Shown here: one piece after another, positions 1,862 to 57,521 of the stretch | How positions within the stretch are numbered: the stretch's first letter is position 1 | How the letters are laid out: each line of letters starts with the position of its first letter | UHGV virus genome: UHGV-0072281 | DNA from: a virus | DNA: 64,000 nt | Reading direction: 5' to 3' (one strand) | The notes under the pieces: model-generated | What the model saw: only the letters and a program-made list of their open reading frames with translations | Told to the model about the DNA's origin: nothing | Databases searched by the model: none | Program-made: the position numbers and the translations under genes

Positions 1862-1924
1862 AGTTGTTCCTAAATTAAGTGAGATAGATATTATCCTACC
1901 GAATCAACCTAAAGGAGCATTAAA

Positions 1925-11382: not shown

Positions 11383-12234
11383 ATGATTGACATTTATACA
11401 GATTACGCCGCCGTTCTTACCGTCAATCGTTCGGAGGAACGTGCTGCACCGTTTCTGGATTTAGTCACGCTTTGCATGGACTACGGATACGACGTTGCGT
11501 TAAGTGATGTATACTGGCAACCGTCTTCTGACCCGGCTGACGAAACGGTTCGATTAGAAGGCATTATCGTTAAGTGTGCGGTAGCGTTAGGTAACCGTCT
11601 AGGGATAGCGTTAAATCCCCAGGAAGTTTACCATAAACCCAAAGAAACCGTACGTATTTTGGACGGTATTACTTCCAAGTTTGAAGAGTTTGAAGACACC
11701 GATACGCTTTATGGTATTGTGATGTCGGGCGAGACGCCAGAATACATTCTGGAAAGTATCTGTCGTTACGTTTACGGCGATGACAATATCCATTTCGAAG
11801 ATTTGGTTGTTCGGGTGTCTCCTCGTGTAATGACAGTGATGAGGAACTACCTGTCTTCTGTGACCGTAGACGAACAATTAGCGGCAGGTAACGACAGACG
11901 TTTGTCACGTATCGCTGATTACCTTCGTTTATATCCTCAAAACCCCTCAGCGTTCGTATTCCTTAACTTACCAGACCTGCCTGATTTGACCGTGGTTCAG
12001 CAGTCGCTGGTCTTCGATGTTGAAGACTACTCGGAAGCCGAGCTGTTGGTAATGTATGCAGTGGGCTTAACGATTATCGATAACGAGGATTACGAAGATG
12101 CGTATGGTGCGTTATCAGAGAACCTGGAGAAGCTCAACAACGAAGGGTTAAAACCGATTCCTATCTTGCAACCTGCTCTGGAAAGCTTGAAGGAGATTTA
12201 TAAGGTAGCGGAGGAAGACAATGACGAGATTTGA
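11383..12234 (+). CDS. hypothetical protein
   Basis: ATG 11383 preceded by GGAAAAGG; 283 aa; 14-nt overlap with next gene. Confidence 0.7.
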   Translation: MIDIYTDYAAVLTVNRSEERAAPFLDLVTLCMDYGYDVALSDVYWQPSSDPADETVRLEGIIVKCAVALGNRLGIALNPQEVYHKPKETVRILDGITSKFEEFEDTDTLYGIVMSGETPEYILESICRYVYGDDNIHFEDLVVRVSPRVMTVMRNYLSSVTVDEQLAAGNDRRLSRIADYLRLYPQNPSAFVFLNLPDLPDLTVVQQSLVFDVEDYSEAELLVMYAVGLTIIDNEDYEDAYGALSENLEKLNNEGLKPIPILQPALESLKEIYKVAEEDNDEI

Positions 12235-13522
12235 GTTTCTGGTGGCGGCTTGTAAAGCTGAAGCCTGGCGTCGTTTAGTGTGGCGTATTGCAATATTCAA
12301 CATGTCAGTGTTCCCGTCGAATCGTGAAGAACCTGAAGCGTTCGATATTACGTATATCGACGGAATGCCGCACTATTACGCGGTAGAAGATGGGAAAGGG
12401 GATTGGCAGCCCATTACTGATGGCGTGAAAGACCAAGAACTGTTTATTCCCGAAGAACAGTTTGAGTTGAAAGTCGATGACTACCCAGGATTAGAAGGAC
12501 CGATTCCTACTACCGTAGGACGTTATATTTTTAACTGGGTTGTTATCTGGTATGCGTTTGGTACACGCTTGCCGTATATGGGTATTTCACAAAACCCGTT
12601 AGAGTATCGTAAAGAGATGCACCGTCGTTGTTTGGATCACGAAACCGATGAACCTGAGAACGAAGGTGCTATTCGTCCGAGCATGATAGAACGCTTTGTA
12701 AGCGGCTTACACGAACTTGCACCGTTAACCGCTGGTATTGCACCAACAGGTACACTTAGAAGCCTTACGGTGCATCCTGATGCGTATAAAATACGTGATG
12801 CGTTGCTGTTAAAGCATAAGGACGAGTTAGACGACCCAGCAGTGATTGTTAAGATAGAAAAAGCACTGGACGAACTGGATAAACAGTGGCTGTCAGGTGA
12901 CCAATCTATCGAGTTCTATAACTCACCAAAATCACGAATGCGTCGACGTAAGTTGATGCTGATGTACGGGATTGAATCGTCTTTCCAGGAAGGGGGTAAC
13001 TATACGTTAATTCCTAACGCACTGGTGGAAGTTGATAAGGCGGGAATGGATAACCTGGTCGCGAAGTTTAACTCTATTCGCGAAGGTTCGTTCTCGCGTG
13101 GTGCAGAAACCGCGAAAGGTGGGGAACAGGTACGTATCATTCAGATGATTTTCCAGAACCACCGAATCGTTGCAGGTGATTGCGGGACGAAACTCACGCA
13201 CCCTGTGGTTATCACAAAAGACAACGTAAAACGTTACGTTGGGATGAACGCGATGGTTAATGGGAAGTTAACCTCCTTGACGGAAGAGTTTTTGAATAGT
13301 CAGCTAGGGAAAGTTGTGCGTCTACGCCGACCCATCTTATGTCAATACGGCCACATCGACTGCTGTACTGCGTGCTCCTCCGAAGCGAAAGGTGAAGAAC
13401 CTCGCGCTATCGCGGCGGATATTTCGTCAGCGTTCTCTAACGTTATGTCCGTGGCAATGGCCGCAATGCACGGTAAAGAAACCGTCGTTCAAGAATACGA
13501 TCCGTTGATCCATATCACCTAA
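12221..13522 (+). CDS. hypothetical protein
   Basis: 433 aa; GAGGAAGA SD before ATG. Confidence 0.8.
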   Translation: MTRFEFLVAACKAEAWRRLVWRIAIFNMSVFPSNREEPEAFDITYIDGMPHYYAVEDGKGDWQPITDGVKDQELFIPEEQFELKVDDYPGLEGPIPTTVGRYIFNWVVIWYAFGTRLPYMGISQNPLEYRKEMHRRCLDHETDEPENEGAIRPSMIERFVSGLHELAPLTAGIAPTGTLRSLTVHPDAYKIRDALLLKHKDELDDPAVIVKIEKALDELDKQWLSGDQSIEFYNSPKSRMRRRKLMLMYGIESSFQEGGNYTLIPNALVEVDKAGMDNLVAKFNSIREGSFSRGAETAKGGEQVRIIQMIFQNHRIVAGDCGTKLTHPVVITKDNVKRYVGMNAMVNGKLTSLTEEFLNSQLGKVVRLRRPILCQYGHIDCCTACSSEAKGEEPRAIAADISSAFSNVMSVAMAAMHGKETVVQEYDPLIHIT

Positions 13523-14050: not shown

Positions 14051-14096
14051 TTACCCTACTCCCGAGAGGAGTAGGGTAGCTTTTATTTTTTCTTAG
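14051..14096. terminator. bidirectional intrinsic terminator; copy 1 of a duplicated 47-bp module
   Basis: Hairpin taccctactcc-cgaga-ggagtagggta then gcttttattttttc; stop codon of minus gene (TTA 14093-14095) inside module. Confidence 0.8.
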
Positions 14097-19415: not shown

Positions 19416-19462
19416 GTACCCTACTCCTTATCGGGAGTAGGGTAGCTTTTATTTTTTCTTAG
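19416..19462. terminator. bidirectional intrinsic terminator; copy 2 of duplicated 47-bp module
   Basis: Hairpin taccctactcc-ttatcg-ggagtagggta then gcttttattttttc; stem and flank identical to 14051-14096, loop differs. Confidence 0.8.
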
Positions 19463-26433: not shown

Positions 26434-27705
26434 ATGGCAAATTTCGCAAAAACTCGCGCCGCTCGTGAATCGATGGAAGCGGCCGATGAAGTAATCGACG
26501 GTATCAGCAACGTTGAACCGGCAGAAGAGAACCTGGACGTCCAGCTTGCAGACGTAGCCTCTATCGACGGTCAGCTCGAACAGCTGGAAACCGACGGTGA
26601 AACCCTGGCTGCCGATACTGAGCGTACTGAAGACGCTATCGATCAGGCGGAAGAAGCCGTTGCTAACGGTGAAGAAATGCCGGAAGAAGCGGTTGCCCTG
26701 CAAGAAGTGGCTCAGGAATCCATCTCACGTCGTTGGAACCTGGAACGCACCAAACTGGCTCGCGAATCCTATCGCCGTGGCCGTGGCATGACTGCTGCTG
26801 CGCAGGAAGGCTGGAAAGAAACCCTGAAAGGTCTTTACGAGCGTTTCATTCAGTTCTGTAAAGAAGTGATTGCGAAGATCAAAGACCTGAAACTGAAATA
26901 TTTCAACGTCGGTAAGACCGCACAGAAACGTGCGAAGAAATATCAGGAAATGCTGCGCAAGCTGGGCAAACAGAAAAATGATACCATCTCCGGTGGCTTC
27001 ATTACTAAGCTGTCCATTGAAGGTAAATTCGATGCAGCTGGTTCTATCGCTATCGCGAAAGAAGTAACCTCTGGTAAAGCTAAAGGTGCTATTAGCGCAC
27101 TGGAAAAACAAGCTGGTGAAGCTGTTACTGCTGTAACCAAAGGTGACGATGAAGCATTCAAAGCAATGCGTGGCGATCAGCCGGTAGAACTGTTCGGTAA
27201 AGCAGCGTCTAAACTGCATAACCTGCCGAACTTTGAAAACGGCGATGCGTCTAAACTGCTGGCTCTGCCGGGTAACGCATACGTTCAGTCCGGTACTAAA
27301 GAACTGGCTGGCGGTCACAAATTTACCGCTGTTGCATTCATGAGCACTGGCGATGCCTCTGACGATAAAGACGTGAAAACTCCGTCTGTTTCTGAAATGG
27401 CTGGCGCTGCTTCTTCTCTGGAATCTATCGGTAAAGGCTTCGAAGCTGTACTGAAAGACTTCCGTGCTTACGATGCAGAGATTGCAAAACTGCAACAGGC
27501 CGCTGAGAAAGCTGCTAACGCGCTGAACAGCGAAAAAGACGAAAGCAAGTGGGATGGCCTGCGTAATGCTCGCCAAGCTGCTGACCAGTCTGTTAAGAAC
27601 TACCAGACCCTGAACCGTGCCGTTAGTTATGTTGCTAACACCGTAATTAGCGGTTTGAACGGTTACCTGGGCGCTGGTATCGGTGCTTACGAAAAATCTA
27701 AGTAA
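26434..27705 (+). CDS. abundant-looking paralogue A: acidic N-terminal propeptide-like region, coiled-coil middle, conserved C-terminal GAGIGAYEKSK
   Basis: 423 aa; AAAGGAAA SD; visibly enriched for ctg/cgt/ggt/aac/gaa codons; N-term MANFAKTRAARESMEA..; motif ALQEVAQESISRRWN. Confidence 0.9.
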   Translation: MANFAKTRAARESMEAADEVIDGISNVEPAEENLDVQLADVASIDGQLEQLETDGETLAADTERTEDAIDQAEEAVANGEEMPEEAVALQEVAQESISRRWNLERTKLARESYRRGRGMTAAAQEGWKETLKGLYERFIQFCKEVIAKIKDLKLKYFNVGKTAQKRAKKYQEMLRKLGKQKNDTISGGFITKLSIEGKFDAAGSIAIAKEVTSGKAKGAISALEKQAGEAVTAVTKGDDEAFKAMRGDQPVELFGKAASKLHNLPNFENGDASKLLALPGNAYVQSGTKELAGGHKFTAVAFMSTGDASDDKDVKTPSVSEMAGAASSLESIGKGFEAVLKDFRAYDAEIAKLQQAAEKAANALNSEKDESKWDGLRNARQAADQSVKNYQTLNRAVSYVANTVISGLNGYLGAGIGAYEKSK

Positions 27706-27785
27706 TACTTAGGTTTACGGTTCCGAACAGTTCTTGAAATAAATCATCAGGGGAGCGAAACGCTCCCCTTAGAGGAAAGCTTAAA

Positions 27786-29048
27786 ATGGCGAATTTCTAC
27801 AAAAACAAAATTGCTCGTGAGTCAATGGAAGCGAACTCTACTGTCGTTCCAGATGGTATTGAGCTGCCAGCAGAGTCTATCGAAGGTACTCTGGCTGATA
27901 TCGAGCACGACACTAAACCGATCGAAGCGCTGGACGCTGACGCAGAGCTGCTGGCGGAAGACGGCGACGAAACCGATGCGCAGCTGGACGTTCTGGACGA
28001 AGCTCAGGCTTCCGCTGACGGCGAAGGTGGTGAAGATGGCGACGATCAGATGGACGCTGAAGAAGACATGCCGGACGACGCTGCTAAAGCGCTGGATGTT
28101 GCTCAGGAATCCATCCGTTCTCGCTGGAACTTCGAACACCGTTCTTCCGTTGCTCACGAATCTTACGGCGCTCGTAACCGTCGTCAGGTTGCTCGTGAAT
28201 CCCTGTGGGACGACATTAAAGCCTTCCTGAAACGTTTCTGGGAATGGCTGAAAGAGCAAGGCCGCAAACTGAAAGATCGTTGGCTGAAATTCCACAACCA
28301 GGGTAAATCTATCCAGGCTCGTGCGAAGAAATACGACGAAGCTATTCGTAAACTGGGCAAACAGAAGAAAGATGAAATCTCCGGTGGTTTCATCAAGTGC
28401 CTGTCTGTTGACGGTAAGTTCGTTGGTAACGATGTACCACGTCTGAAAGACGCGATGAGCCGTGTTTCTTCTTTCTACAGCAAACACGTTCCAACTCTGC
28501 TGGCTTCTGGTACCGCTCTGGTTGCAGACGTATCCAAAGCTAACGGTGCTCAGGCTGAGCAACTGCGTGCTGAATTTGCTGCGCTTTCTAAAGAAGATGG
28601 CGACAAAGAATTCCGCCTGGGCAACATGGTTATGCAGACCAACTTCGATGAAGATGGTGGCTTTAGCTTCACTCACGTTGAAGCAGAAAATGCTGTTGAA
28701 ACCAGCGTGAAAACTCCGTCTGTAAGCGAACTGGCTAAACTGAACGGTTTCTTCACCGATCTGGGTAAACAGATTGAGAAGAACGTTCTCGAATACCGTA
28801 AGACCGAGCAGGCTCGTGAGAAGTTCGCTCAGTCTATCGAGAAACTGCTGAAAGAAATCGATAACGTCAAGATCGATGAAAAACCAGAACTGACTGAAGG
28901 CGTACGTGTTGCACGTCGCTATGTTAACAGCATTCGCAGCGCAGTATCCCTGTGCGAGAAAGTTGTTGCTTCTGCTCAGAAAAACCTGGTTAGCGGCGTT
29001 AGCGGTTATATCAGCGCCGGTATCGCAGCGTACGAAAAGTCTAAGTAA
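27786..29048 (+). CDS. abundant-looking paralogue B of 26434-27705
   Basis: 420 aa; N-term MANFYKNKIARESMEA.., motif ALDVAQESIRSRWN, C-term SAGIAAYEKSK; same codon bias. Confidence 0.9.
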   Translation: MANFYKNKIARESMEANSTVVPDGIELPAESIEGTLADIEHDTKPIEALDADAELLAEDGDETDAQLDVLDEAQASADGEGGEDGDDQMDAEEDMPDDAAKALDVAQESIRSRWNFEHRSSVAHESYGARNRRQVARESLWDDIKAFLKRFWEWLKEQGRKLKDRWLKFHNQGKSIQARAKKYDEAIRKLGKQKKDEISGGFIKCLSVDGKFVGNDVPRLKDAMSRVSSFYSKHVPTLLASGTALVADVSKANGAQAEQLRAEFAALSKEDGDKEFRLGNMVMQTNFDEDGGFSFTHVEAENAVETSVKTPSVSELAKLNGFFTDLGKQIEKNVLEYRKTEQAREKFAQSIEKLLKEIDNVKIDEKPELTEGVRVARRYVNSIRSAVSLCEKVVASAQKNLVSGVSGYISAGIAAYEKSK

Positions 29049-29069
29049 TCGTTGATTATTTAGCGTAGA

Positions 29070-29113
29070 ATCACCCCGCGATGCGGGGTGATTTCTTTTT
29101 TCTTTTTTTTTTT
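29070..29113 (+). terminator. strong intrinsic terminator
   Basis: 10-bp stem atcaccccgc-gat-gcggggtgat followed by >20 nt T-rich run. Confidence 0.9.
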
Positions 29114-29118
29114 CGATT

Positions 29119-29168
29119 AAAAATAATTTCAGATATATATTACTTAAGTGAGATTACACAGTAATCTC
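29119..29168 (+). promoter_or_regulatory. conserved promoter-like element, copy 1 (core TTTCAGATATATATTACTTAAGTGAGA)
   Basis: Near-identical to 37372-37423 over ~50 nt; located between terminator and next gene. Confidence 0.5.
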
Positions 29169-29203: not shown

Positions 29204-29845
29204 ATGAGCCGCATTAATTTAACTGATTTTGTTGATGGTGTTGTAACTTTAGAAAGCAAAGGCGCGACCTTAGTTGCTCCGAATGCCAAAGTGCTGGATT
29301 TAAATCCTGTAGAAGTGATTGCTATTTCTACTTGGTTACGTTTGTCTTACGACAAGAAATTCGAAGGGTTAGAGAAAGAATCTCTAACTGTCAATACTCG
29401 TGAGTTTGTCTTTAAAGAAATCGACAGCGAAAAATTGGAAGCTTTCTCAAAACAGATGGTTAATCCACGTACAGACGGTGATGTCGGTATGCGCGAATAC
29501 AGTGGTGAAAAATACCATGCGTTTACTGATGCCCATGTTGCGTTGTGTGAGAAAGGTGAAGGGAGATTCGTTGCTGTTTGTTTCTTCCATTTAATCGCGC
29601 CGAAACAGAAAGATTTGCTGTTTGAAATCGCGAAGGATTCGGCAGAAGCGGTTATGGATACGATTGTTGAACTTTTCGAAGCGATGCGTGATATTCCGCG
29701 TGTGTTAGAAGTAAGTGAGGGACCTATGGATAGCTTTAAAATTCTACCATTGATTTATAGTAAGGACCATGAAGAGGAATGTACATTCGTCCTGTTCAAT
29801 GGTTCGATGGCTGCGTCTGTAAAACAGTTCGCTGCATCCATTTAA
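29204..29845 (+). CDS. hypothetical protein
   Basis: 213 aa from ATG 29204 with AGGAGAAA SD. Confidence 0.8.
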   Translation: MSRINLTDFVDGVVTLESKGATLVAPNAKVLDLNPVEVIAISTWLRLSYDKKFEGLEKESLTVNTREFVFKEIDSEKLEAFSKQMVNPRTDGDVGMREYSGEKYHAFTDAHVALCEKGEGRFVAVCFFHLIAPKQKDLLFEIAKDSAEAVMDTIVELFEAMRDIPRVLEVSEGPMDSFKILPLIYSKDHEEECTFVLFNGSMAASVKQFAASI

Positions 29846-29850
29846 ATACA

Positions 29851-29880
29851 AAGCCCTCCGTAGAGGGCTTTTATTTTTTC
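29851..29880 (+). terminator. intrinsic terminator
   Basis: Hairpin aagccctc-cgta-gagggctt then ttattttttc. Confidence 0.8.
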
Positions 29881-29899
29881 GACCTTTAGGAGAATAGAA

Positions 29900-30451
29900 A
29901 TGAACAAATTTAATATCTTAGACGCTAAAATCGTATCCGAGTCTTCTATTCAGCAAGAAATCTTTCGTGTTCAGTTCGGCGAGAAAGTTCTGAATATCCC
30001 ACGTCCCGTTATGATTGGCTTAGCGATATTCGTTAACAACAGCCATTGCAACGGTTCGGCGTTGTCAGTTCTTGAGTACGGTGACTATCAGTTTTATATT
30101 CCAGAGCATCTCGAGTATAACCGTTTTATTGAACTTAAACCGTTCTATAAATTCATGCTTGATGCAGGGTATTCGATTCTAACCAAAACGTATATTCGTG
30201 ACTACTCGAAGTTAGAATCTTTCTATCGTGCCCGTGGTCTTCGTGTCCCGCAACCGTTTGACGGATACCAGACCCGCGTTGTGTTAACTGCGCCGTTAAC
30301 GAAAGAACTGGCTTCCTATAAACTGGATATCGAGCAGAAACTACTGCGTGACGACTTACTGAAAATCTATAACCAGTTGTCCGTGGTACCTTCTTCAACT
30401 GTCTCGAACATTGAACCAGAGTACGGAATAAGACAATACAAGGAAGGTTAA
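29900..30451 (+). CDS. hypothetical protein
   Basis: 183 aa; AGGAGAA SD. Confidence 0.8.
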   Translation: MNKFNILDAKIVSESSIQQEIFRVQFGEKVLNIPRPVMIGLAIFVNNSHCNGSALSVLEYGDYQFYIPEHLEYNRFIELKPFYKFMLDAGYSILTKTYIRDYSKLESFYRARGLRVPQPFDGYQTRVVLTAPLTKELASYKLDIEQKLLRDDLLKIYNQLSVVPSSTVSNIEPEYGIRQYKEG

Positions 30452-30452
30452 G

Positions 30453-30758
30453 ATGAAACCGAGAGCCGACCGAGTAGACGTAATACATTTTGAAGAGTGT
30501 GAAACCGAGTATCAGGTTAAACGCACTGATTTACGTTTAGTTATTCCTAAGCTAAACGAACCTGAGTGGAACGGCGAGCTGATGGTACCGCTTGCCGAAC
30601 CAATTAAAACGGGGACAGGCGAGATTAATTATCTCCATTTAGAAGCCGCCGGACGCAAAGTAACCGTTTGGCATCTTGCTGACGGTTACAAAACCAGTCA
30701 GCTTACACGTAAAGCATTTATTCGGAAATTAAGAAAGTCGACGGGAGTTGTGAAATGA
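30453..30758 (+). CDS. hypothetical protein
   Basis: 101 aa; AAGGAAGG SD; ATGA overlap with DHFR gene. Confidence 0.7.
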   Translation: MKPRADRVDVIHFEECETEYQVKRTDLRLVIPKLNEPEWNGELMVPLAEPIKTGTGEINYLHLEAAGRKVTVWHLADGYKTSQLTRKAFIRKLRKSTGVVK

Positions 30759-31291
30759 CAGTTACTGTATCTTTGATTGCGGCAGCGGGACTTAATAATG
30801 AAATAGGGAAAGACAATAAACTCCCTTGGCATATTCCCGATGACTTGAAGAACTTCAAAGCACTTACGTCAGGTAAGGTTATTGTGATGGGACGTAAGAC
30901 GTGGGAGTCTTTGGGATGTAAACCTTTACCAAACCGACATCATTTTGTGCTAACAAGAAAGCCTGATGATTTGCCCACAATGAAAGGGGTAATTTATTCT
31001 AAAGGTAAAATGGAAGCGTTTATTGAATTTCTCAAAATAACGATCAAGGAAAAAGATTTTCCCAAGGAAATTTTTATCATCGGGGGCGCAGAAATTTACC
31101 GCCAGGCGTTGCCATATGCGGATAAGATCTATCTGTCGCGCGTAGAAGCTAAAGTTGACGGTGCGGATGCGTTCTTTCCTGAAATCGATCGCGATGAGTT
31201 TAAATTGGTTTATAACTTAACGCACTGCTCGAAACCAGAAAGTGGTATTCCGCGTTGGCATTATCAGATTTGGAAAAGAGATGGGCACTGA
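30755..31291 (+). CDS. dihydrofolate reductase
   Basis: 178 aa; IAAAGLNNEIGKDNKLPWHIPDDLKNFKALTSGKVIVMGRKTWESLG and IIGGAEIYRQALPYADKIYLSRVEAKVDGDAFFPEID closely parallel E. coli FolA. Confidence 0.93.
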   Translation: MTVTVSLIAAAGLNNEIGKDNKLPWHIPDDLKNFKALTSGKVIVMGRKTWESLGCKPLPNRHHFVLTRKPDDLPTMKGVIYSKGKMEAFIEFLKITIKEKDFPKEIFIIGGAEIYRQALPYADKIYLSRVEAKVDGADAFFPEIDRDEFKLVYNLTHCSKPESGIPRWHYQIWKRDGH

Positions 31292-31577
31292 GTTTGTAAC
31301 CTTAGAAAAACTCTTTTTAGGCAGCGTCGCGAAAGGGAAGATAGCCAGTTTCACTTGGAACCGCACTCCCGTAAAATACGCGTTTCTACGTCGTTTACAC
31401 TACGAGAAAAGCATCAAGCTGGTCTTGGTCGTGTTGTTCGAAAACAAGCGTGGATTGTTGATTAATAATCATCGTTTTGCGGCGGAGATCTGGGCGACCA
31501 CATCTGGCGGCGAGGAAGCATCTGTTGGCTTTGCTAACGATGAGGTTATCTTTGAGGGTATACCTTATCTGTTATAG
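31281..31577 (+). CDS. hypothetical protein
   Basis: 98 aa from ATG 31281, overlapping DHFR stop by 11 nt; terminator downstream. Confidence 0.55.
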   Translation: MGTEFVTLEKLFLGSVAKGKIASFTWNRTPVKYAFLRRLHYEKSIKLVLVVLFENKRGLLINNHRFAAEIWATTSGGEEASVGFANDEVIFEGIPYLL

Positions 31578-31590
31578 CACAGATAAACGT

Positions 31591-31625
31591 AAAAGGGGAC
31601 TTCGGTTCCCTTTTATTTTTTTTTC
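31591..31625 (+). terminator. intrinsic terminator
   Basis: Hairpin aaaaggggac-ttcg-gttccctttt (one mismatch, UUCG loop) then T-run. Confidence 0.75.
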
Positions 31626-37219: not shown

Positions 37220-37225
37220 AATTAT

Positions 37226-37264
37226 CCCGTTACCCACAAAGGTAACGGGATGTCCTTTTATTTA
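37226..37264 (+). terminator. intrinsic terminator
   Basis: Hairpin cccgttacc-cacaaa-ggtaacggg then tccttttattt. Confidence 0.7.
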
Positions 37265-37371
37265 CTCGTAAACGCGTCTTAGACGCTGTTTTACACCTTA
37301 AGACGATTAATGGTGTTTAAAAAATAAAAGGTCGTCAGAATGCGATACAGCGCGTTTTAGAGGGTGTTTTA

Positions 37372-37423
37372 ATTAAAATATTTTCAGATATATATTACTT
37401 AGGTGAGAGAATTACGTAATACT
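37372..37423 (+). promoter_or_regulatory. conserved promoter-like element, copy 2 (core TTTCAGATATATATTACTTAGGTGAGA)
   Basis: Matches 29119-29168 at nearly every position; 48 nt upstream of ATG 37456. Confidence 0.5.
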
Positions 37424-37455
37424 CATTTATCGTATACCTAATTAGGAGCTATATC

Positions 37456-37599
37456 ATGATTTCTGTAAAACACAAAAAAGCTATCTTCGCTGTTGTTATC
37501 GCTGTTGTTCTGGGTTGCCTGTACCTGGATATCGACAAAGGCTACGACACTTGCATCGACAACGGTAATTCCGTTGCGCAGTGCACTGGTCGTGGTTAA
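37456..37599 (+). CDS. small single-pass membrane peptide (47 aa)
   Basis: MISVKHKKAIFAVVIAVVLGCLYLDIDKGYDTCIDNGNSVAQCTGRG; AGGAG SD; optimal codons; own promoter-like element and terminator; too short for the ORF track. Confidence 0.65.
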   Translation: MISVKHKKAIFAVVIAVVLGCLYLDIDKGYDTCIDNGNSVAQCTGRG

Positions 37600-37603
37600 T
37601 GTA

Positions 37604-37636
37604 TAAGGCACCTTCGGGTGCCCTTAATTTTTTTAT
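37604..37636 (+). terminator. intrinsic terminator
   Basis: Hairpin ggcacc-ttcg-ggtgcc then cttaattttttt. Confidence 0.75.
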
Positions 37637-38469: not shown

Positions 38470-38475
38470 AAGCAA

Positions 38476-38518
38476 CCCCTAATCCCGAAAAGGATTAGGG
38501 GTACACTTTATTTATTTT
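38476..38518 (+). terminator. intrinsic terminator
   Basis: Hairpin cccctaatcc-cgaaaa-ggattagggg then T-rich run. Confidence 0.8.
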
Positions 38519-38541
38519 CGCTCTTAAAAGGAAATTGTGTC

Positions 38542-38697
38542 ATGAGAAATGTTAATGCAATGCTTAACCAGGCATTTGTTAACCAACAGCGTTTTCAGGA
38601 ACGCTTAGCACAACTTAAAACACAACACAGACCACCACAACAAAGAGTGGTTAAGAGCAAGTTCGGCGAAATGGTTTTCGAAAGAAAATCTTTCTAA
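38542..38697 (+). CDS. small basic protein, paralogue 1 of 3 (51 aa)
   Basis: MRNVNAMLNQAFVNQQRFQERLAQLKTQHRPPQQRVVKSKFGEMVFERKSF; AAAAGGAAA SD; not in ORF track (<60 aa). Confidence 0.55.
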   Translation: MRNVNAMLNQAFVNQQRFQERLAQLKTQHRPPQQRVVKSKFGEMVFERKSF

Positions 38698-38704
38698 TAA
38701 CCGT

Positions 38705-38731
38705 TAGGGGTGTGACAGCACCCCTTTTTAC
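38705..38731 (+). terminator. intrinsic terminator
   Basis: Hairpin aggggtg-tgacag-cacccct then ttttt. Confidence 0.7.
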
Positions 38732-38847
38732 GCTTTAACTTTTCCAAAGAGAAGTTAAAGCAGTAAGGACTGTTGGCGCAGTCCTTACTTGTCATCGCTA
38801 TTACAGAAACGTGATAGCACAATTCTAATTTTTAGAGGCGATCAGAA

Positions 38848-39015
38848 ATGTTCGACAGTATTACACAAATTTTTAACACTACCGTAAACAATCACGCTCA
38901 GCAAGCGAAGTTTAATGAACGATTAAGGGAAGTTCAACAATTAGGATTAAATAAAAGATTAAAATCTTCCAATAATCCTCGAGTACAGATCTTCACCGAA
39001 AGGAGAAGTAACTGA
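38848..39015 (+). CDS. small basic protein, paralogue 2 of 3 (55 aa)
   Basis: MFDSITQIFNTTVNNHAQQAKFNERLREVQQLGLNKRLKSSNNPRVQIFTERRSN; shares QLG-NKRLK-S-N---QI-TE-RS with paralogue 3. Confidence 0.6.
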   Translation: MFDSITQIFNTTVNNHAQQAKFNERLREVQQLGLNKRLKSSNNPRVQIFTERRSN

Positions 39016-39023
39016 TAAAAACA

Positions 39024-39053
39024 AGGTGAGCTGTTGGAGCAGCTCACCTTTTA
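39024..39053 (+). terminator. intrinsic terminator
   Basis: Hairpin aggtgagctg-ttggag-cagctcacct then ttt. Confidence 0.65.
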
Positions 39054-39111
39054 CAACGCCATTACGTTTCCGTAATGGATTTCTTTAATCACCCTACAAA
39101 GAGGGCTTACC

Positions 39112-39285
39112 ATGAACAATGGTTACTACTTTACTGACAAAATGCTTGCAGAACAATATGCAGCAAAAACCAATTTACAGCAACGTATCTACGAGTATAG
39201 TCAACTCGGTGCGAATAAACGATTAAAACCATCAACCAACCGTTTCACACAGATAATCACTGAAAAAAGGAGTGAACGCTACTAA
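39112..39285 (+). CDS. small basic protein, paralogue 3 of 3 (57 aa)
   Basis: MNNGYYFTDKMLAEQYAAKTNLQQRIYEYSQLGANKRLKPSTNRFTQIITEKRSERY. Confidence 0.6.
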   Translation: MNNGYYFTDKMLAEQYAAKTNLQQRIYEYSQLGANKRLKPSTNRFTQIITEKRSERY

Positions 39286-39420
39286 CTAATAAAAGGGGGT
39301 GTGCTACCACCCCCTACTTAGTTCAGCAGTTGTCTTTCGTTCATAAATATTAGATGTCTTGTTTTTTTTTGCTTTTCGGGACGCATAAGGGGTCGTAGGG
39401 GGAGCCGAAGCTCCCCAGAC

Positions 39421-41533: not shown

Positions 41534-43819
41534 ATGAAAGATACCCGAATCTCTAATTTAGAGAAACTCGTAGAAGCCGGTACTAGTCTGGCCCAAAACG
41601 TCATCGGCAACAACACCGCCAGCGAAATGTGGAAGACGATTGTTGCAGGCGAGTCCGTACGTAGCAACGCAAAAGTATTTGGCGCTCTGCGTGACGAAGC
41701 ATCACAGCACTATGCCAACGCTTTTGGCGGCAAGAAAATGTCTCATGCTGCGACCGTCGCTTCCGCAATGATTCTGGGCGTAGCTAACCACGGTAAAGAC
41801 CTGCAAGAACGTGTTGCCCAGGAATACGCTAAGCCGGAATTCCACACCAAGTATAACCTGGATATTGGTATCCCTGGTGCGCAAGGTGGTGATTGGGGTC
41901 GTGAGCGTATGGTTGTTGCTCAGGAATACTACAGCAACAAAGACTACGACAAAAACTTGGGCCTGACCTGGACCCTGAACGTACGTGCTCTGGAAACTCA
42001 GTCCAAGTTTGCTGAAACACTGTTCCCGACCATTACCGTTGACACCAACGATGTTGGTATTACCGTACGTACTAAAGTGACTACCGTTTCTCGCGGTATC
42101 ATGAACGCGCTGCTGAGCAAAGACGTCGTTGAAGATCATCGTCGTCCGCTGCACAACGCACTGACTGACCACACCGTTCTCCAGGACGAAGCGATCAACA
42201 TCGTTCCTTACGTAATGGAAACCGGTGAAAACCAGGAATACTTCGTAAGCGAAGATCTGGTTCCGAACGAAAAAGTTCGCCTGGGTCGTGTACCTCCGTA
42301 TCCGACTAACTACCTGAGCTTTGCAAACGACACGCTGAACCTGTTCCAGCTGTCTGCGCATCCGGGTATCGTTCAGGAAGGTTACGATGAAACTGATGAA
42401 ATCGCACCGGGTTGTGCTCTGGGCAGCCTGCTGATTTCTGTACGTAAACCGGCCGAAGAAGCGAAAGCGGGTAAATTCATCAAACTGCACGTTCGTGACA
42501 TGCAGTTCGCAACCTTCCAGCGTCCTGCTGAAGGTGACGGCCGTGAACTGGTTCTGCAATTCCGTCGTACCGCGTTCTCTCTGAATGCGAAAACCACTGA
42601 CTGGAAAGGCGACGCTATTCCGGCACTGCAAGCACTGGGCCAGAACTCCTACACCCTGCGCTACGTTATCACCATCACCATGTCCCTGTTCACCAGCGGC
42701 CAGTTCGGTGGTAAAGTAGACATTTCCGGCCACAAACTGGAAATCGAAGGTCTGTACGATGCAACTGGTAACAAAGTTGATACCAAGTCTGGTACCGGCA
42801 AAGTTATCCTGGATGGCCTGAAACTCGAACTGATGGGCTGGCGCTTCGATGGTACTCGTACCAACGAAAACCGTCGTACCCAGGGTCTGCTGCTTGACCC
42901 AATTTGGGAACAGGAAAACTACAAACTGCAATACGGTTCTCCGATTCTGACCAAGTCTCCGGTTGGTGTTGAATACGACGACACTGAACGTCTGGATGAC
43001 CTGATCTCTGCGGTGAACATCCGTAACGAACAGCTGGCTATTACTCAGACGCTGTCTTACACTGAAGCAGTACGTAACGCAGCCGCTGCGATGATCACTC
43101 CGTGGGACAAACCGGCTATCCGTGGTCTGGGCCGTCACTGGGTTGCTCCGTGGTTCAAAGAGTCTGACTACAAAGTCGATGAAGTTGTTCAGTCTCTGGA
43201 TACCAAAGAAGCGCTGATCAACGCTCGTCAGGGTCTGTTGCAGCGTATCGGTAGCCAGGTAACTCAGGCTATCCAGGATTCTCGTTTCATTCCTGCACTG
43301 CGCCTGCTGACCGCTGATCCGGACATTCTTCCGAAAGTTATTATCGCAACTGACGAACCGACTGCATCCATGCTGCTGCTGGTTCAGGGCGACCAACGTC
43401 TGCTGGGCGACCGTTATGAATACGAAGTCGTTACCACCAACGATGACCGCTGGCGTATCTACAACGCAGCTGACGATTCCTGGACTCGTCGTCTGCAATG
43501 GTTCCTGAAAGTTCCGACTGCGGACGATGGTTCCTACTGCGTACTGAACTGGGGTAACCACTTCTGGTCTCCGATCATGGTTACCAACATCAACATTCAG
43601 CGTAACGGTTCTACTTCTAAAGAACTGGCTGTACAGCCGCGTAACGCGCATATCTGCCACTGCCCGATCACTGGTCTGATTTGGGTTAAAGGCATCACCA
43701 AACTGGTTGAAGAAAAACTGGCTTACAACGTTTCTGTAGAACAGAACGGCCAGAAACAAACCGAAGGTGGTGTAGCAGGTAACCTTGCTGTCGAAGGCAA
43801 AGCTACCGCTGGTAAATAA
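41534..43819 (+). CDS. candidate major capsid protein
   Basis: 761 aa, size class of phiKZ-type major capsid proteins; strongest optimal-codon bias in window; AAGG SD; strong terminator downstream; S/A/G-x-E motifs in N-terminal ~100 aa; no homology check possible. Confidence 0.45.
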   Translation: MKDTRISNLEKLVEAGTSLAQNVIGNNTASEMWKTIVAGESVRSNAKVFGALRDEASQHYANAFGGKKMSHAATVASAMILGVANHGKDLQERVAQEYAKPEFHTKYNLDIGIPGAQGGDWGRERMVVAQEYYSNKDYDKNLGLTWTLNVRALETQSKFAETLFPTITVDTNDVGITVRTKVTTVSRGIMNALLSKDVVEDHRRPLHNALTDHTVLQDEAINIVPYVMETGENQEYFVSEDLVPNEKVRLGRVPPYPTNYLSFANDTLNLFQLSAHPGIVQEGYDETDEIAPGCALGSLLISVRKPAEEAKAGKFIKLHVRDMQFATFQRPAEGDGRELVLQFRRTAFSLNAKTTDWKGDAIPALQALGQNSYTLRYVITITMSLFTSGQFGGKVDISGHKLEIEGLYDATGNKVDTKSGTGKVILDGLKLELMGWRFDGTRTNENRRTQGLLLDPIWEQENYKLQYGSPILTKSPVGVEYDDTERLDDLISAVNIRNEQLAITQTLSYTEAVRNAAAAMITPWDKPAIRGLGRHWVAPWFKESDYKVDEVVQSLDTKEALINARQGLLQRIGSQVTQAIQDSRFIPALRLLTADPDILPKVIIATDEPTASMLLLVQGDQRLLGDRYEYEVVTTNDDRWRIYNAADDSWTRRLQWFLKVPTADDGSYCVLNWGNHFWSPIMVTNINIQRNGSTSKELAVQPRNAHICHCPITGLIWVKGITKLVEEKLAYNVSVEQNGQKQTEGGVAGNLAVEGKATAGK

Positions 43820-43834
43820 TATCGAATAAAAAGT

Positions 43835-43872
43835 GTCTAAGCCCCAAAAGGGCTTAGACCTTTTATTTTTTT
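43835..43872 (+). terminator. strong intrinsic terminator
   Basis: Hairpin gtctaagccc-caaaa-gggcttagac then ttttatttttttc. Confidence 0.85.
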
Positions 43873-43884
43873 CTTTCTATTATT

Positions 43885-43911
43885 TTTCGGATAGATATTA
43901 TTAAAGAGAGA
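43885..43911 (+). promoter_or_regulatory. conserved promoter-like element, copy 3 (TTTCGGATAGATATTATTAAAGAGAGA)
   Basis: 22/27 identity to copies 1 and 2; again directly downstream of a terminator. Confidence 0.4.
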
Positions 43912-43937: not shown

Positions 43938-43988
43938 ATGGAAAAATTACAGTTAAAACTAAAGATATGTACCATTATTAAAACTTAA
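43938..43988 (+). CDS. 16-codon upstream ORF / possible leader peptide (MEKLQLKLKICTIIKT)
   Basis: Strong SD AAAGGAGAG 6 nt before ATG; stops 12 nt before ATG of 44001 gene, which itself lacks an SD. Confidence 0.3.
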   Translation: MEKLQLKLKICTIIKT

Positions 43989-44000
43989 TCTGGCCCTTAC

Positions 44001-45011
44001 ATGAACCGTCTTGATATTGATGTGGTACCCAGTGTTACTGACCGCTCGTTGTATCAAAAGTCAGGACTACAAAAACTCATCACTTTTGAGAATAATACTG
44101 GTGTGCCAATTTACGTCACTGAAACCAGTGGCGGTAGCTTTATTTTAACTCCGTCCAAAAGCACGGCTGATGAGCATGGGGTTGTTGTTTATGTAACGTA
44201 TCAATCGTTCGGAAATCTGGCTAACCTGAACGGGTTTGCAGAAGTCTTACCAGAAAAACAATTCACTAAATTTTGTGCAGATTTAAAGGAGAAAGGAGAG
44301 GTCACACTCCGATACGTCGTCGACGATATCGGTGCTTTATTACGTGGGGACTTGGTTGTATTGAAGCAGTTAGGATTTGCATTTTCAATTACACCAGTTC
44401 GATTAGAAAGTACACCACCGAGTGTAAGGCCAGGAGGTGAGAGAACTGAATTTACATTGGGTGTTATTGTTGTGCAGCGTTACGACGATCCCGAATTATA
44501 TCGTTGGATTAGATTCTACGGAACGCGCATGGAAGTACAACCGATTCTATCGCGGTATTACGAACCGGGTGTGTACATGGTAATAGGAGGAGGAGACAAA
44601 GTAGAAGGGAGCAGGATGATTCACTTTGAGTTCGATGACTTATTGTCACCGTTCCGTGTTTTTAAAGATAAAGAAACAGCCACTGCGTTTCGATGGCAAG
44701 AAACGTTACCGGATATTCACGAGATAAAGGAAAAGCTGGAAAGTCAATACAGAGAAAAATTAGAAAGTTTGGATTCGGCAAAAGACAAACTGGAATTAGA
44801 ACACAAAAAACAACTACAGAATTTGGCTTTAGAAAAGGAGCGTTTGACTCTAGCGTATAAACAACAAGAACTAGAAGCAAAGTCTCGGGCAGAGGCACGA
44901 AAAGAATTCTACGAGACTCGTTCTTACATTCGTAAAGATGGGTCAGACCTATTTAAATCAGTCCCTGCGTATCTGGCGGCGGGTGTCGCATTTATAGGGA
45001 TGCTAAAGTAA
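44001..45011 (+). CDS. hypothetical protein with C-terminal coiled coil and terminal hydrophobic segment
   Basis: 336 aa; C-terminal KLESQYREKLESL...KQQELEAK then AYLAAGVAFIGML; AT-rich codon usage. Confidence 0.75.
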   Translation: MNRLDIDVVPSVTDRSLYQKSGLQKLITFENNTGVPIYVTETSGGSFILTPSKSTADEHGVVVYVTYQSFGNLANLNGFAEVLPEKQFTKFCADLKEKGEVTLRYVVDDIGALLRGDLVVLKQLGFAFSITPVRLESTPPSVRPGGERTEFTLGVIVVQRYDDPELYRWIRFYGTRMEVQPILSRYYEPGVYMVIGGGDKVEGSRMIHFEFDDLLSPFRVFKDKETATAFRWQETLPDIHEIKEKLESQYREKLESLDSAKDKLELEHKKQLQNLALEKERLTLAYKQQELEAKSRAEARKEFYETRSYIRKDGSDLFKSVPAYLAAGVAFIGMLK

Positions 45012-45021
45012 GGAGCGTGGC

Positions 45022-46797
45022 GTGTTTAAAGATGCAATCAGAAAGCTTAAAGAGGATGGCAAAATAGTACCCTTTAACCGAGCGATTGCGGAAGGTGTCG
45101 GTTATACCCAGGCCAAAGATGGTATACACGAACGTGTTCAGATTATCTTGAAACGTGAGCTGGATTATCATCCTGTTGATAATCCGCGTGTTCCTGAAGG
45201 GCTGGCTGTATTAGGTGTACGGTTAATGTCGCCGTTTGAAACGTTCATCTATAAGCTGTCTCGTTCTGAGAGCAGCAGAATGGATAGACGCCGTGGTGTG
45301 ATGTCCATTGCGAACACCGATGCGTATATGGTCATGTCAACATTCCGTATTCCAGGAGATTCTCGACCGATCTCAAGACCGATTAACTTACCCTTTATCC
45401 GTCGTGGTGGTTTAATGAACTATTACGGTACGACGTATCACGTTGCGCCGGTTATTCACCAGCCAGGTATCTGTCGCGAACACGGTGGGGTATTTGTTAA
45501 CTTTGACTTTAAACGTAAAGCCTCGTTGAAATTCTGTAAGCAACCTGTCCGTGTGTTAGTCAACGGTAAAAAAGAGGAGCTATTCTTACCAGGAACCAAA
45601 AACCTGTTCAAAGCGAAGAACGCAACACATCCCGATACTGACGAGAAACCGTTAATGTATTGGTTGTTCGGACGTTACGGATTTAAAGAAGCGATTAAAC
45701 GCTATACTGGTGTTGACGTAGAAATTTATCCATCGTTTAAGATCCCAGAACTCGATCTCAACGAGAAAGTTGTAATCAGTTCCGGTGAATCGAAATATAA
45801 CCGTTCGATAATGTACGCGGTTGTCGTACCCGCAGAAGCATTGCCGAACGTGGATAAAGTCGGTTGGGATCAAAACGAGCATTTATTGCTGGCTGCAATT
45901 GCTGCGTTCTTCAAAGCTGCTCACTACTATTGCAGTAAACAATCTATTAAGAACGGTAACGTCACACCGCTGCCGCCGCTGTTTACCGCAATTAACGAGT
46001 TAGCGATGGAAGACGATATTGCTAATCTGAACTCTGCTCCGATTTGGCGTGAGATTCTGGGAAGAAGTATCGTAGGACTGAAACCTTCCGATATTGAGTT
46101 AGCGCACAGTATGGCGAAACACTATACTGAATGTGATCGCTATGTTAACTCAACGTTCCGTGCAGAACTGAAGATGACCGATCCCGACATTCCAGACGAT
46201 ATGGATATGTTTGATTTCTTCTGGTATGCAACGAAACTGATGGTACGTACCCGTTTGACCAAACAGGGCGACATTCCGTCGATGTACGGAAAACGTTTAA
46301 CCGTAACTGACTACTTACTGTTAGGTGACCGTGGGTTTACACCAACGGTAGCGGCTATTCGTTTCCAGCTGGGACAAACGGAGAACCGTTCGCCGGAATC
46401 CTGCGCGAATATGATTCGTAGCGCACTCAATAAAGAAATTGTCACGAGTCTGGTACTGCGTAATATCACCGGTAATGGCGGTGTAAGTTATTTTAACGCA
46501 TCAACAGAATCCATGGTGTTAGGAGTATCCACACACGCGATCAGTCAAACTGAAACGGAATCTAAACGCAACAGCAAGGGCGGTAAAACGGTTAACCTTA
46601 ACGACCGTACGAAACACGCTTCTGCATCGCATCTGGAGTGTGGTAACGTTTATTATATTCCGAAATCATCCCCGTTCAAATGGGGTGTCCTTAACCCGTA
46701 TATGAAAACTAACCGTCAGTTAGTGATGGTTCGTAATCCAAAACTTGACGAGTTAATTCAAGCAACTGAAGAAGACATTGCGAAGATTGGCCGTTAA
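45022..46797 (+). CDS. hypothetical protein (GTG start proposed)
   Basis: 591 aa; AAGGAG SD 6 nt before GTG 45022. Confidence 0.75.
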   Translation: MFKDAIRKLKEDGKIVPFNRAIAEGVGYTQAKDGIHERVQIILKRELDYHPVDNPRVPEGLAVLGVRLMSPFETFIYKLSRSESSRMDRRRGVMSIANTDAYMVMSTFRIPGDSRPISRPINLPFIRRGGLMNYYGTTYHVAPVIHQPGICREHGGVFVNFDFKRKASLKFCKQPVRVLVNGKKEELFLPGTKNLFKAKNATHPDTDEKPLMYWLFGRYGFKEAIKRYTGVDVEIYPSFKIPELDLNEKVVISSGESKYNRSIMYAVVVPAEALPNVDKVGWDQNEHLLLAAIAAFFKAAHYYCSKQSIKNGNVTPLPPLFTAINELAMEDDIANLNSAPIWREILGRSIVGLKPSDIELAHSMAKHYTECDRYVNSTFRAELKMTDPDIPDDMDMFDFFWYATKLMVRTRLTKQGDIPSMYGKRLTVTDYLLLGDRGFTPTVAAIRFQLGQTENRSPESCANMIRSALNKEIVTSLVLRNITGNGGVSYFNASTESMVLGVSTHAISQTETESKRNSKGGKTVNLNDRTKHASASHLECGNVYYIPKSSPFKWGVLNPYMKTNRQLVMVRNPKLDELIQATEEDIAKIGR

Positions 46798-48782: not shown

Positions 48783-48828
48783 TTCCCCAATTTATTATAG
48801 CCGCCCACTATAGTGAGGGAATGAGGAA

Positions 48829-56790: not shown

Positions 56791-56834
56791 ACAATTTTTG
56801 ATCATACTGTGAGACTTCTAGCGAGGAGATTTAG

Positions 56835-57521
56835 ATGAAGGAATTGCAATTAAGAAAGCGTACTACTCTTATCCCCCTTAAGGAACTAAAACAGTGTCCC
56901 GTTTTCTACTCACCGAAAGATCACCTAGATTTATCTAAAGAGAAAAAGATTATTATTTCTGCCTTCCGAGAAGTAATCAATCTTCGTTATTTCGCGGCAC
57001 CAATGGATTGTGCTATCGAACATGCTATGTTGGATGGAAGAACGTCGCTTACAGTTTACGATTTGTTAGAAGAAAAGAATATCGGTATTGAAACTGGTAT
57101 ACTGAGAGTAAACAAAAATGAGTTATTAGAAAGTCAAAAACAACTAATGACAGGTGTTCAATTACTCTTAGAGCAATATGGCTTCTATTCGGAAAAACCA
57201 ACTTCTGCGGTATCTACACAACCCATCATCTGTGACCATGGGTTTGAGGTAGAATGGAAAACAATTCGAGGGCAAGATTTTATTTTAATACATTGGTTCG
57301 TTCCCTATCTTTGGAAAGAGCGTACCACAGTTTATGCTTTACTTGAATTCGCTGTCTACTGGAGCATTTATAAAAAAGAACGTGCTACTGCAATGAAAAC
57401 GGTAATGACCACACCGTTAAATCAACTTTTTACCTCTGGGTTAGAAACAGATTTTAACGAACTATGTACAACTATTTTCAAGATGGAGTATGGCTATGCA
57501 CCAGTTGGATATAACCGCTGA
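56835..57521 (+). CDS. hypothetical protein (AT-rich codon usage)
   Basis: 228 aa; GAGGAG SD. Confidence 0.75.
   Translation: MKELQLRKRTTLIPLKELKQCPVFYSPKDHLDLSKEKKIIISAFREVINLRYFAAPMDCAIEHAMLDGRTSLTVYDLLEEKNIGIETGILRVNKNELLESQKQLMTGVQLLLEQYGFYSEKPTSAVSTQPIICDHGFEVEWKTIRGQDFILIHWFVPYLWKERTTVYALLEFAVYWSIYKKERATAMKTVMTTPLNQLFTSGLETDFNELCTTIFKMEYGYAPVGYNR

Follow-up and report, generated by a model that had tools for sequence, protein, structure and literature searches.

Gene organization of the window

The window analysed here, a 64,000-nucleotide stretch of the viral genome UHGV-0072281, can be assigned from its sequence to a phiKZ-like (Chimalliviridae-type) jumbo phage with multisubunit phage RNA polymerase (RNAP) genes. 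Its relatives, the Salmonella phage SPN3US and the Erwinia phages phiEaH2 and Asesino, are distant (ca. 74% nucleotide identity in patches), and its RNAP proteins are 70–77% identical to those of the SPN3US/Erwinia phage group. The window is collinear with SPN3US at about 27–91 kb and, more loosely, with phiKZ gp70–gp82. The genome encodes split multisubunit virion and non-virion RNAPs. The RNAP beta-like gene pair at 1925–4165 and 4165–6264 corresponds to PHROG 3295/3015, and tblastn hits of this pair included genes annotated as 'non-virion RNAP subunit' in KTN4 and 'nvRNAP beta subunit 2' in RAY. Another RNAP beta-like gene is located at 45022–46797, and its orthologue is annotated as 'putative RNA polymerase beta subunit' in Asesino and Kwan. 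The RNAP subunits of the window phage and phiKZ are about 23–27% identical. PHIKZ080, whose homologue is encoded at 12221–13522, carries the annotation 'RNA polymerase beta subunit / structural head protein'. The presence of this gp80 homologue shows that the phage carries the virion RNAP machinery, the enzyme proposed below for the promoters in the window.

The features discussed in this study are listed below in the order of their coordinates; copies of the repeated element are numbered 1 to 4, and their scores are those of the weight matrix described in the next section.

1869..1901, + strand, predicted class B (variant-type) promoter, copy 4; core GATAGATATTAT at 1883–1894; predicted start G1901; score 26.9
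12221..13522, + strand, phiKZ gp80 homologue, virion RNA polymerase subunit (BLASTP with PHIKZ080, E=8e-48, 27% identity, 434 aa)
26434–29048, two internal head proteins (PHROG 2497)
29068..29113, + strand, intrinsic terminator from the terminator scan; 12-bp stem (7 G-C pairs) at 29068–29094, followed by a long T-run
29118..29150, + strand, predicted class A (strong-type) promoter, copy 1, from −32 to +1; score 46.0
29132–29143, + strand, core of copy 1, GATATATATTAC; predicted start G29150, in a register that follows AR9
29150..29168, + strand, 5'-terminal hairpin of copy 1, GAGATTAC-aca-GTAATCTC, beginning at the predicted +1; −8.2 kcal/mol
29204..31577, + strand, non-structural gene block downstream of copy 1, ending at a terminator (31589–31616)
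37373..37405, + strand, predicted class A (strong-type) promoter, copy 2; core at 37387–37398; predicted start G37405; score 44.9
37405..37424, + strand, 5' hairpin of copy 2, GAGAGAATTACGTAATACTC, weak and imperfect; about −1.5 to −2 kcal/mol
37456..37599, + strand, 47-aa gene (PHROG 8574) after copy 2, orthologue of SPN3US ACQ60_gp200
37607–37622, + strand, terminator after the 47-aa gene, from the terminator scan
43835..43859, + strand, intrinsic terminator after the major head protein gene (41534–43819)
43876..43908, + strand, predicted class B (variant-type) promoter, copy 3; core GATAGATATTAT at 43890–43901; predicted start G43908; score 34.8

The block that follows copy 1 comprises genes for a 213-aa hypothetical protein, members of PHROG 12369 and PHROG 9893, a dihydrofolate reductase (DHFR; 30755–31291), and a small ORF, and its gene order is the same in SPN3US. 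Copy 3 is followed by a 16-aa small ORF, the gene at 44001–45011, and the RNAP beta-like gene at 45022–46797. The 16-aa ORF (MEKLQLKLKICTIIKT; 43939–43989, + strand) has a strong ribosome-binding site (RBS), and the gene at 44001–45011 has no obvious one. A second promoter of the variant type lies directly before the orthologue of the latter gene in SPN3US (72685) and Asesino (74901), and the window is without a counterpart of it.

Copies of the element in the window

The element first drew attention as a pair of nearly identical sequences of ca. 50 bp. A 27-nt core, TTTCAGATATATATTACTTA[A/G]GTGAGA, was located at 29127–29153 and 37382–37408, on the + strand in both cases; TTTCAGATATATATTACTTARGTGAGA represents this core in the two full copies. 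No match to it was obtained in 100 dinucleotide-preserving shuffles. The near identity reported by the first-pass annotation thus holds for the core; the true spans of the pair are 29120–29168 and 37375–37424, from which the coordinates given earlier deviate by 1–3 nt. Copies 1 and 2 differ at two positions across their first 34 nt, and beyond these they have only the ability to form a hairpin in common. When both strands of the whole window were searched with the core, the third-best match was at 43885–43911 (22 out of 27 positions), exactly as had been claimed for the third copy. The fourth-best match, on the opposite strand, reached 19 out of 27, which is at the chance level.

All three copies precede gene starts as described, with an RBS and a start codon downstream. 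The accompanying statement that each copy lies just after a strong terminator applies to copies 1 and 3. The terminator at 29068–29113 closes the internal-head-protein operon and abuts copy 1. On the other hand, copy 2 is located about 130 nt past its terminator (37223–37252). Upstream of copy 2, at about 37336–37366 on the + strand, there is a conserved hairpin, GAATGCG-ATACAG-CGCGTT, followed by TAGAGGGTGT. Compensatory-looking changes were seen in this hairpin in SPN3US and four IMG/VR relatives; since it lacks a T-run, it was not regarded as a terminator.

The window was then scanned with the pattern GATAKATATTAY-N6-G, allowing at most one mismatch. Four hits were obtained against an expectation of 0.14, and all four were on the + strand and intergenic. 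An independent weight matrix was built only from 20 SPN3US sites and covered positions −32 to +4. The sites with cores beginning at 29132, 37387, 43890, and 1883 scored 46.0, 44.9, 34.8, and 26.9, respectively, whereas the fifth and lower hits in the window scored at most 8.6 and the peaks in ten random windows ranged from 3.9 to 11.1. Since every other score fell within the random range, the window contains exactly four sites of this family. All four are upstream of non-structural genes, read GATA(T/G)ATATTA(C/T)-N6-G, and are separated from the first start codon by 24–54 nt.

The fourth site, at 1883–1901, was overlooked in the first-pass annotation and is new here. It reads GATAGATATTAT-CCTACC-G and is separated by 24 nt from the downstream gene pair for the non-virion RNAP beta-like proteins (1925–4165 and 4165–6264). 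A weaker relative of the element containing GTGAGA had been noted at 1875–1884. The GTGAGA itself is not conserved in the orthologous regions, but the sequence abuts the genuine fourth site. The other two proposed GTGAGA relatives, at 48811–48822 and 56806–56816, were missing from the top hits of the weight matrix in the window and therefore score no better than random sequence. Each of them has a small block in common with SPN3US, yet neither fitted the promoter model, and they were rejected as members of the family. The former overlaps a conserved inverted repeat, TTTATTATAG-CCGCCCA-CTATAGTGAGG, at 48790–48822 (+ strand), just before a small gene; the SPN3US counterpart at 77570 reads TTATTATAGAG-TAG-CTCTATAATGAGG. 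This repeat is outside the early-promoter model and possibly serves as another kind of signal.

Conservation of the sites in related phages

Conservation in related genomes had been suggested as a check on the proposed promoter. Every copy has a counterpart at the orthologous position in SPN3US, Asesino, and IMG/VR relatives, whereas the flanking intergenic DNA has diverged. The sites at 1883, 29132, 37387, and 43890 correspond to positions 28970, 56295, 65414, and 72487 in SPN3US and to positions 29796, 57393, 66946, and 73982 in Asesino, respectively. The pattern GATAKATATTAY-N6-G (at most one mismatch) gave 22 hits in the whole genome of SPN3US, 21 of which were on the + strand. Twenty of the 22 were intergenic and immediately upstream of a co-oriented gene, and none in the whole genome preceded the major head, tail sheath, terminase, or virion RNAP genes. 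For Asesino, the initial 100 kb yielded 13 sites, every one on the + strand and at the same orthologous positions. The block upstream of copy 2, TTTCAGATATATATTACYTAGGTGA, reads the same in the window, SPN3US, and four IMG/VR relatives. Its invariance amid visibly diverged intergenic flanks indicates that the promoter block is under purifying selection, as judged from these alignments. At copy 4, AGATAGATATTATCYTACYGA does not vary among the window, SPN3US, Asesino, and phiEaH2.

A scan of IMG/VR with an exact 17-mer returned 84 loci, mostly on contigs of ca. 205–246 kb with up to 4–5 copies each. In these copies, the motif is followed by YTARGTGAGA, the hairpin, an RBS, and then an ATG 50–75 nt downstream. 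When the variant 14-mer GATAGATATTATCT was used as the query, unrelated contigs were among the matches listed. The exact 17-mer, together with a similar upstream ATTGAAAATAT block, was also present in non-jumbo viral contigs of 19–51 kb (IMG/VR L028, L043, L049, L056, and L084), in which it is followed by CTGAGAGAAAG and not by YTARGTGAGA.

Comparison with mapped early promoters

The early promoters of AR9, which were mapped experimentally, have the consensus AAATATATATTAT-(6N)-G+1, and transcription in phiKZ and phiR1-37 likewise starts 6 nt past the consensus element (PMC5312081). Because the AR9 early transcripts are present by 5 min and are chloramphenicol-independent, these promoters were attributed to the virion RNAP, for which single deviations from the consensus are reported to matter (PMC5312081). 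Up to 2017, virion RNAP had been purified from no phage of the group of AR9, according to the same paper (PMC5312081). All RNAP-encoding jumbo phages have a highly conserved AT-rich motif of ca. 10 nt near −10 before their early operons; where transcripts were profiled, this motif is the early promoter and is attributed to the injected virion RNAP (PMC7598289). For phiKZ, 28–32 early promoter sites of the virion RNAP are reported (Ceyssens 2014, as cited in PMC8244752 and PMC10914365), and the early motif is found at the mapped early primary start of PHIKZ054 (PMC8244752).

A 50-kb stretch of phiKZ was examined directly for promoter sites. The sequences upstream of PHIKZ054, 058.1, and 068 read ...AAATTT(G/C)AGAT(T/C)TATATTAC-6N-G, and copy 1 in the window was identical to the PHIKZ054 site at 26 of the 31 positions from −30 to +1, as counted by eye. 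In the register of AR9, the sequence of the window is ATATATATTAC-TTAAGT-G; that is, an extended AT-rich element of the TATATTAC/T type is present near −10, and the predicted start is 6 nt further on. Neither the phiKZ late consensus (TATG at the start) nor the AR9 late consensus (AACA-N6-TA/G) was found in register, and the element precedes non-structural genes. A search of the full-text literature for TATATTAC as a string returned unrelated papers only.

The window sites resemble the phiKZ early promoters in the core TATATTAC, the TG/G six nucleotides downstream, the upstream ATTT(C/G)AGAT block, and the A-tract, as well as in being intergenic, co-oriented with non-structural genes, and often located after terminators. 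However, the window lineage has GATATATATTAC where phiKZ has GAT(T/C)TATATTAC, and it differs from phiKZ in its strongly conserved GAGA start followed by a hairpin and, as far as can be seen, in the second discrete variant, GATAGATATTAT. The AT-rich core, the register, the 6-nt spacer, and the G start are common to the window and AR9. In contrast to the window phage, AR9 infects Bacillus and contains uracil in its genome; its consensus, which has a terminal T, does not include the upstream TTTCA block, and a 5' hairpin is not reported for it. The sites scanned in SPN3US and the Erwinia phages also fit the AT-rich description near −10 according to the predicted motifs of Lavysh 2016, as relayed in PMC7598289.

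These comparisons suggest that the element is probably (with a probability of about 0.8) an early promoter of the phiKZ-like jumbo phages, that is, a promoter of a known kind belonging to the virion RNAP type. The first-pass annotation had envisaged a promoter recognised by a phage RNAP, and its proposal is supported by the presence of RNAP genes, the early-promoter sequence with its register and G start, and the conserved positions. Which polymerase acts, when it does so, and at which nucleotide it starts are all inferred from homology with phiKZ and AR9, that is, with phages whose RNAP subunits are only about 23–27% identical.

Hairpin at the predicted 5' end

The region from +1 to +26 was folded for 26 distinct strong-type sites of relatives and compared with shuffled sequences in which the first five bases were kept. 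The mean fold energy was −5.1 kcal/mol, compared with −1.6 kcal/mol for the shuffled sequences, and 23 of the 26 sites folded lower than their own shuffles. Position +1 was paired in 19 of these sites, against 11.5 expected. Among nine hairpins of equal length, 95.8% of the cells pair, whereas the value dropped to 42–54% with the partners slid; two of the base pairs exchange AU, CG, GC, and GU. Since the set is small and the sequences are related, this covariation is supportive rather than conclusive. The variant copies have a short leader; copy 4 forms no hairpin, and that of copy 3 is weak (−1.8 kcal/mol).

A DNA-level structure or an earlier transcription start was considered as another source of the stem and tested through its extension upstream of +1. 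Extension by up to 4 bp was seen in some relatives and was not significant (p = 0.12–0.24), which fits an RNA hairpin formed from the first transcribed base. The stems that reach upstream of the predicted +1 in relatives leave a little doubt about the exact start. A search of the whole window against Rfam gave no family at the gathering score. The tRNA and Pfam searches of the window and the downstream proteins gave only weak, sub-threshold zinc-ribbon hits in a 271-aa protein.

Phage N4 also injects a virion polymerase, and its conserved early promoters include a hairpin. However, N4 relies on a single-subunit polymerase, and the hairpin of its promoter is formed by DNA upstream of the start, whereas the window phage has multisubunit enzymes and a hairpin that starts at +1 and has the character of an RNA 5' stem-loop. 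The likeness to N4 is an analogy only.

Two types of site

The bases at −14 and −7 vary together in SPN3US: six sites have T/C, 15 have G/T, and two are mixed (Fisher p = 4.6e-4). The 5' hairpin in SPN3US goes with the T/C type, with a mean fold energy of −7.1 kcal/mol compared with −2.9 kcal/mol (p = 0.004). Each orthologous site keeps its type in the window, SPN3US, and Asesino alike. In the window, the strong type is represented by copies 1 and 2 and the GATAGATATTAT type by copies 3 and 4, both of which precede non-virion RNAP genes. Sites of either type carry T at −32 and, without exception, A at −29; the A-tract, the core register, and the G at +1 do not differ between the types either. 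Based on this common extended architecture, they were treated as one family recognised by one enzyme. The variant core, AGATA-T-TATCT, is near-palindromic (1885–1895 and 43892–43902 in the window), and at SPN3US 191603(+)/191619(−) a variant core between divergent genes scores on both strands.

It is conceivable, though on balance unlikely, that the lineage comprising SPN3US, the Erwinia phages, and the window phage has the virion-polymerase promoter in two distinct versions, each tied to its own genomic positions, the second of which is timed or tuned differently and controls the non-virion RNAP genes. Under this two-version reading, GATATATATTAC would be an immediate-early promoter with an obligatory 5' RNA hairpin, and GATAGATATTAT would be a promoter without a systematic hairpin, whose timing would be set by, for instance, a phage DNA-binding factor or the second polymerase. 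If this were true, the 'middle' switch would come down to a tractable difference, namely two bases and the leader structure.

Alternative explanations

The types might also be two separate promoter classes, with GATATATATTAC being early and dependent on the virion RNAP, and GATAGATATTAT being middle and dependent on either the non-virion RNAP or the virion RNAP plus a factor that would bind the near-palindrome AGATA-T-TATCT. A separate temporal class was kept under consideration because the orthologous RNAP pair of 201phi2-1, encoding the non-virion beta/beta' subunits, is transcribed from a middle and not an early promoter (PMC11512511). The coupling of −14 with −7, the association of the hairpin with one type in SPN3US, and the retention of the type at each orthologous site in the window, SPN3US, and Asesino point in the same direction. 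So do the reported sensitivity of the AR9 virion RNAP to single deviations from its consensus (PMC5312081) and the reverse-strand matrix scores of 13–17 at three variant sites (among them SPN3US 191603/191619), which reflect dyad symmetry. Nevertheless, the whole extended architecture is common to both types, which favours one recognising enzyme, and the mapped early consensus of AR9 ends in T, as does the variant type (PMC5312081). In addition, the middle motif of phiKZ looks different, being a TACT centred at −22 after an A-rich repeat (PMC8244752), and the non-virion RNAP genes need to be expressed before that enzyme exists. We therefore consider a division into early and middle classes doubtful and retain the reading of all four sites as early promoters of the virion RNAP.

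Two explanations that do without a phage RNAP promoter fit the data far less well. An ordinary host sigma-70 promoter, through which the bacterial RNAP would transcribe phage early genes, is suggested by TATATT at −14 to −9 (five of the six bases of TATAAT), by the presence, in many copies, of a (T)TGATT or CGATTA block 17 bp further upstream, and by the description of the phiKZ early motif with an 'extended −10 box' (PMC8244752). However, the match to the −35 sequence is only three out of six at both strong copies, by eye, and neither copy 1 nor copy 2 was called in a consensus scan (TTGACA/TATAAT, spacer of 16–18 bp, at least 4/6 in each hexamer, and 9/12 overall). A sigma-70 promoter would not need several of the conserved positions, namely TTTCAGATA, AC at −8/−7, and YTARGTG. 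The same motif is found in Pseudomonas phages and its AR9 form in a Bacillus phage, with about 20 sites per phage genome. Furthermore, phiKZ-type infections are insensitive to rifampicin, and the AR9 early transcripts appear without new protein synthesis (PMC5312081). Transcription by the host enzyme from these sites is thus very improbable. A dispersed element other than a promoter, such as an operator, an RNA leader, a replication or packaging signal, or a mobile terminator-linked cassette, would account for the frequent abutment on terminators, the hairpin, and the near-palindromic, operator-like variant core. Its strand and position would then not be expected to be tied to downstream gene starts, as they are at all four sites in the window and at 20 of the 22 sites in SPN3US, nor to stand at a fixed distance from the ATG (24–54 nt in the window). 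Target-site duplications and flanking repeats are both absent, the orthologous positions have been kept over a long divergence and are not scattered, and the sequence matches experimentally mapped promoters. An origin of this kind is accordingly the least plausible of the explanations considered, and an early promoter of the virion RNAP remains the preferred one.

Proposed mode of action of the probable early promoters

Judging from the homology with phiKZ and AR9, the capsid would carry the multisubunit virion RNAP, which would enter the cell together with the injected DNA. The enzyme would bind an extended AT-rich signal from about −32 to −5, in which T at −32 is followed by the A-tract (from −29), by TTTCA (−23 to −19), and by the core GATA(T/G)ATATTA(C/T) (−18 to −7). 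Transcription is predicted to start at the conserved G six nucleotides past the core (G29150, G37405, G43908, and G1901) and would take place within minutes of infection, without host RNAP and without new protein synthesis. Since the upstream terminators would block read-through from the virion-protein operons, each promoter is expected to open an independent early unit. In the transcripts from the strong copies, the conserved GAGA start would form the 5' arm of an initial stem-loop, and this hairpin most likely shields the 5' end of the early mRNA from decay. Early transcription from the variant copies before the non-virion RNAP genes would yield the second polymerase, which would take over later.

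On this basis, four early transcription units can be placed in the window together with their predicted start nucleotides. The genes likely to be expressed first are those of the DHFR-containing block, the gene for the 47-aa protein, and both non-virion RNAP gene sets. The promoter is deeply conserved, with about 84% identity to phiKZ compared with about 25% for the polymerase subunits. The motif could therefore serve as a cheap marker of early genes on metagenomic jumbo-phage contigs. The two types of site and the covarying hairpin at +1 are modest new details that bear on early-to-middle switching and early mRNA stability, respectively.

Other signals in the window

A 25-nt string, GGAGTAGGGTAGCTTTTATTTTTTC, is identical at 14068–14092 and 19434–19458 (+ strand). 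It forms the 3' arm and T-run of a terminator stem, CCCTACTCC/GGAGTAGGG, located between convergent genes, and the same CCCTACTCC/GGAGTAGGG stem was found in phiEaH2 (L002, about 2945–2985). The stem seems to represent a conserved family of terminators, of the sort that is reported for phiKZ and 201phi2-1.

In SPN3US, AATCGACYATTA, followed by a few bases and AAGGAG, occurs just upstream of early-region start codons, for example at 57148, 65457, 94282, 114032, 167594, and 224199. It was considered as a second promoter and rejected, as it is also found before operon-internal genes beside the RBS and is absent from the intergenic regions of the window. From this absence, AATCGACYATTA is probably a lineage-specific motif of the translation initiation region.

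The region at 38470–39420 consists of 951 nt without a long ORF and contains five terminator-like hairpins on both strands. Several very small genes are annotated in the collinear region of SPN3US.
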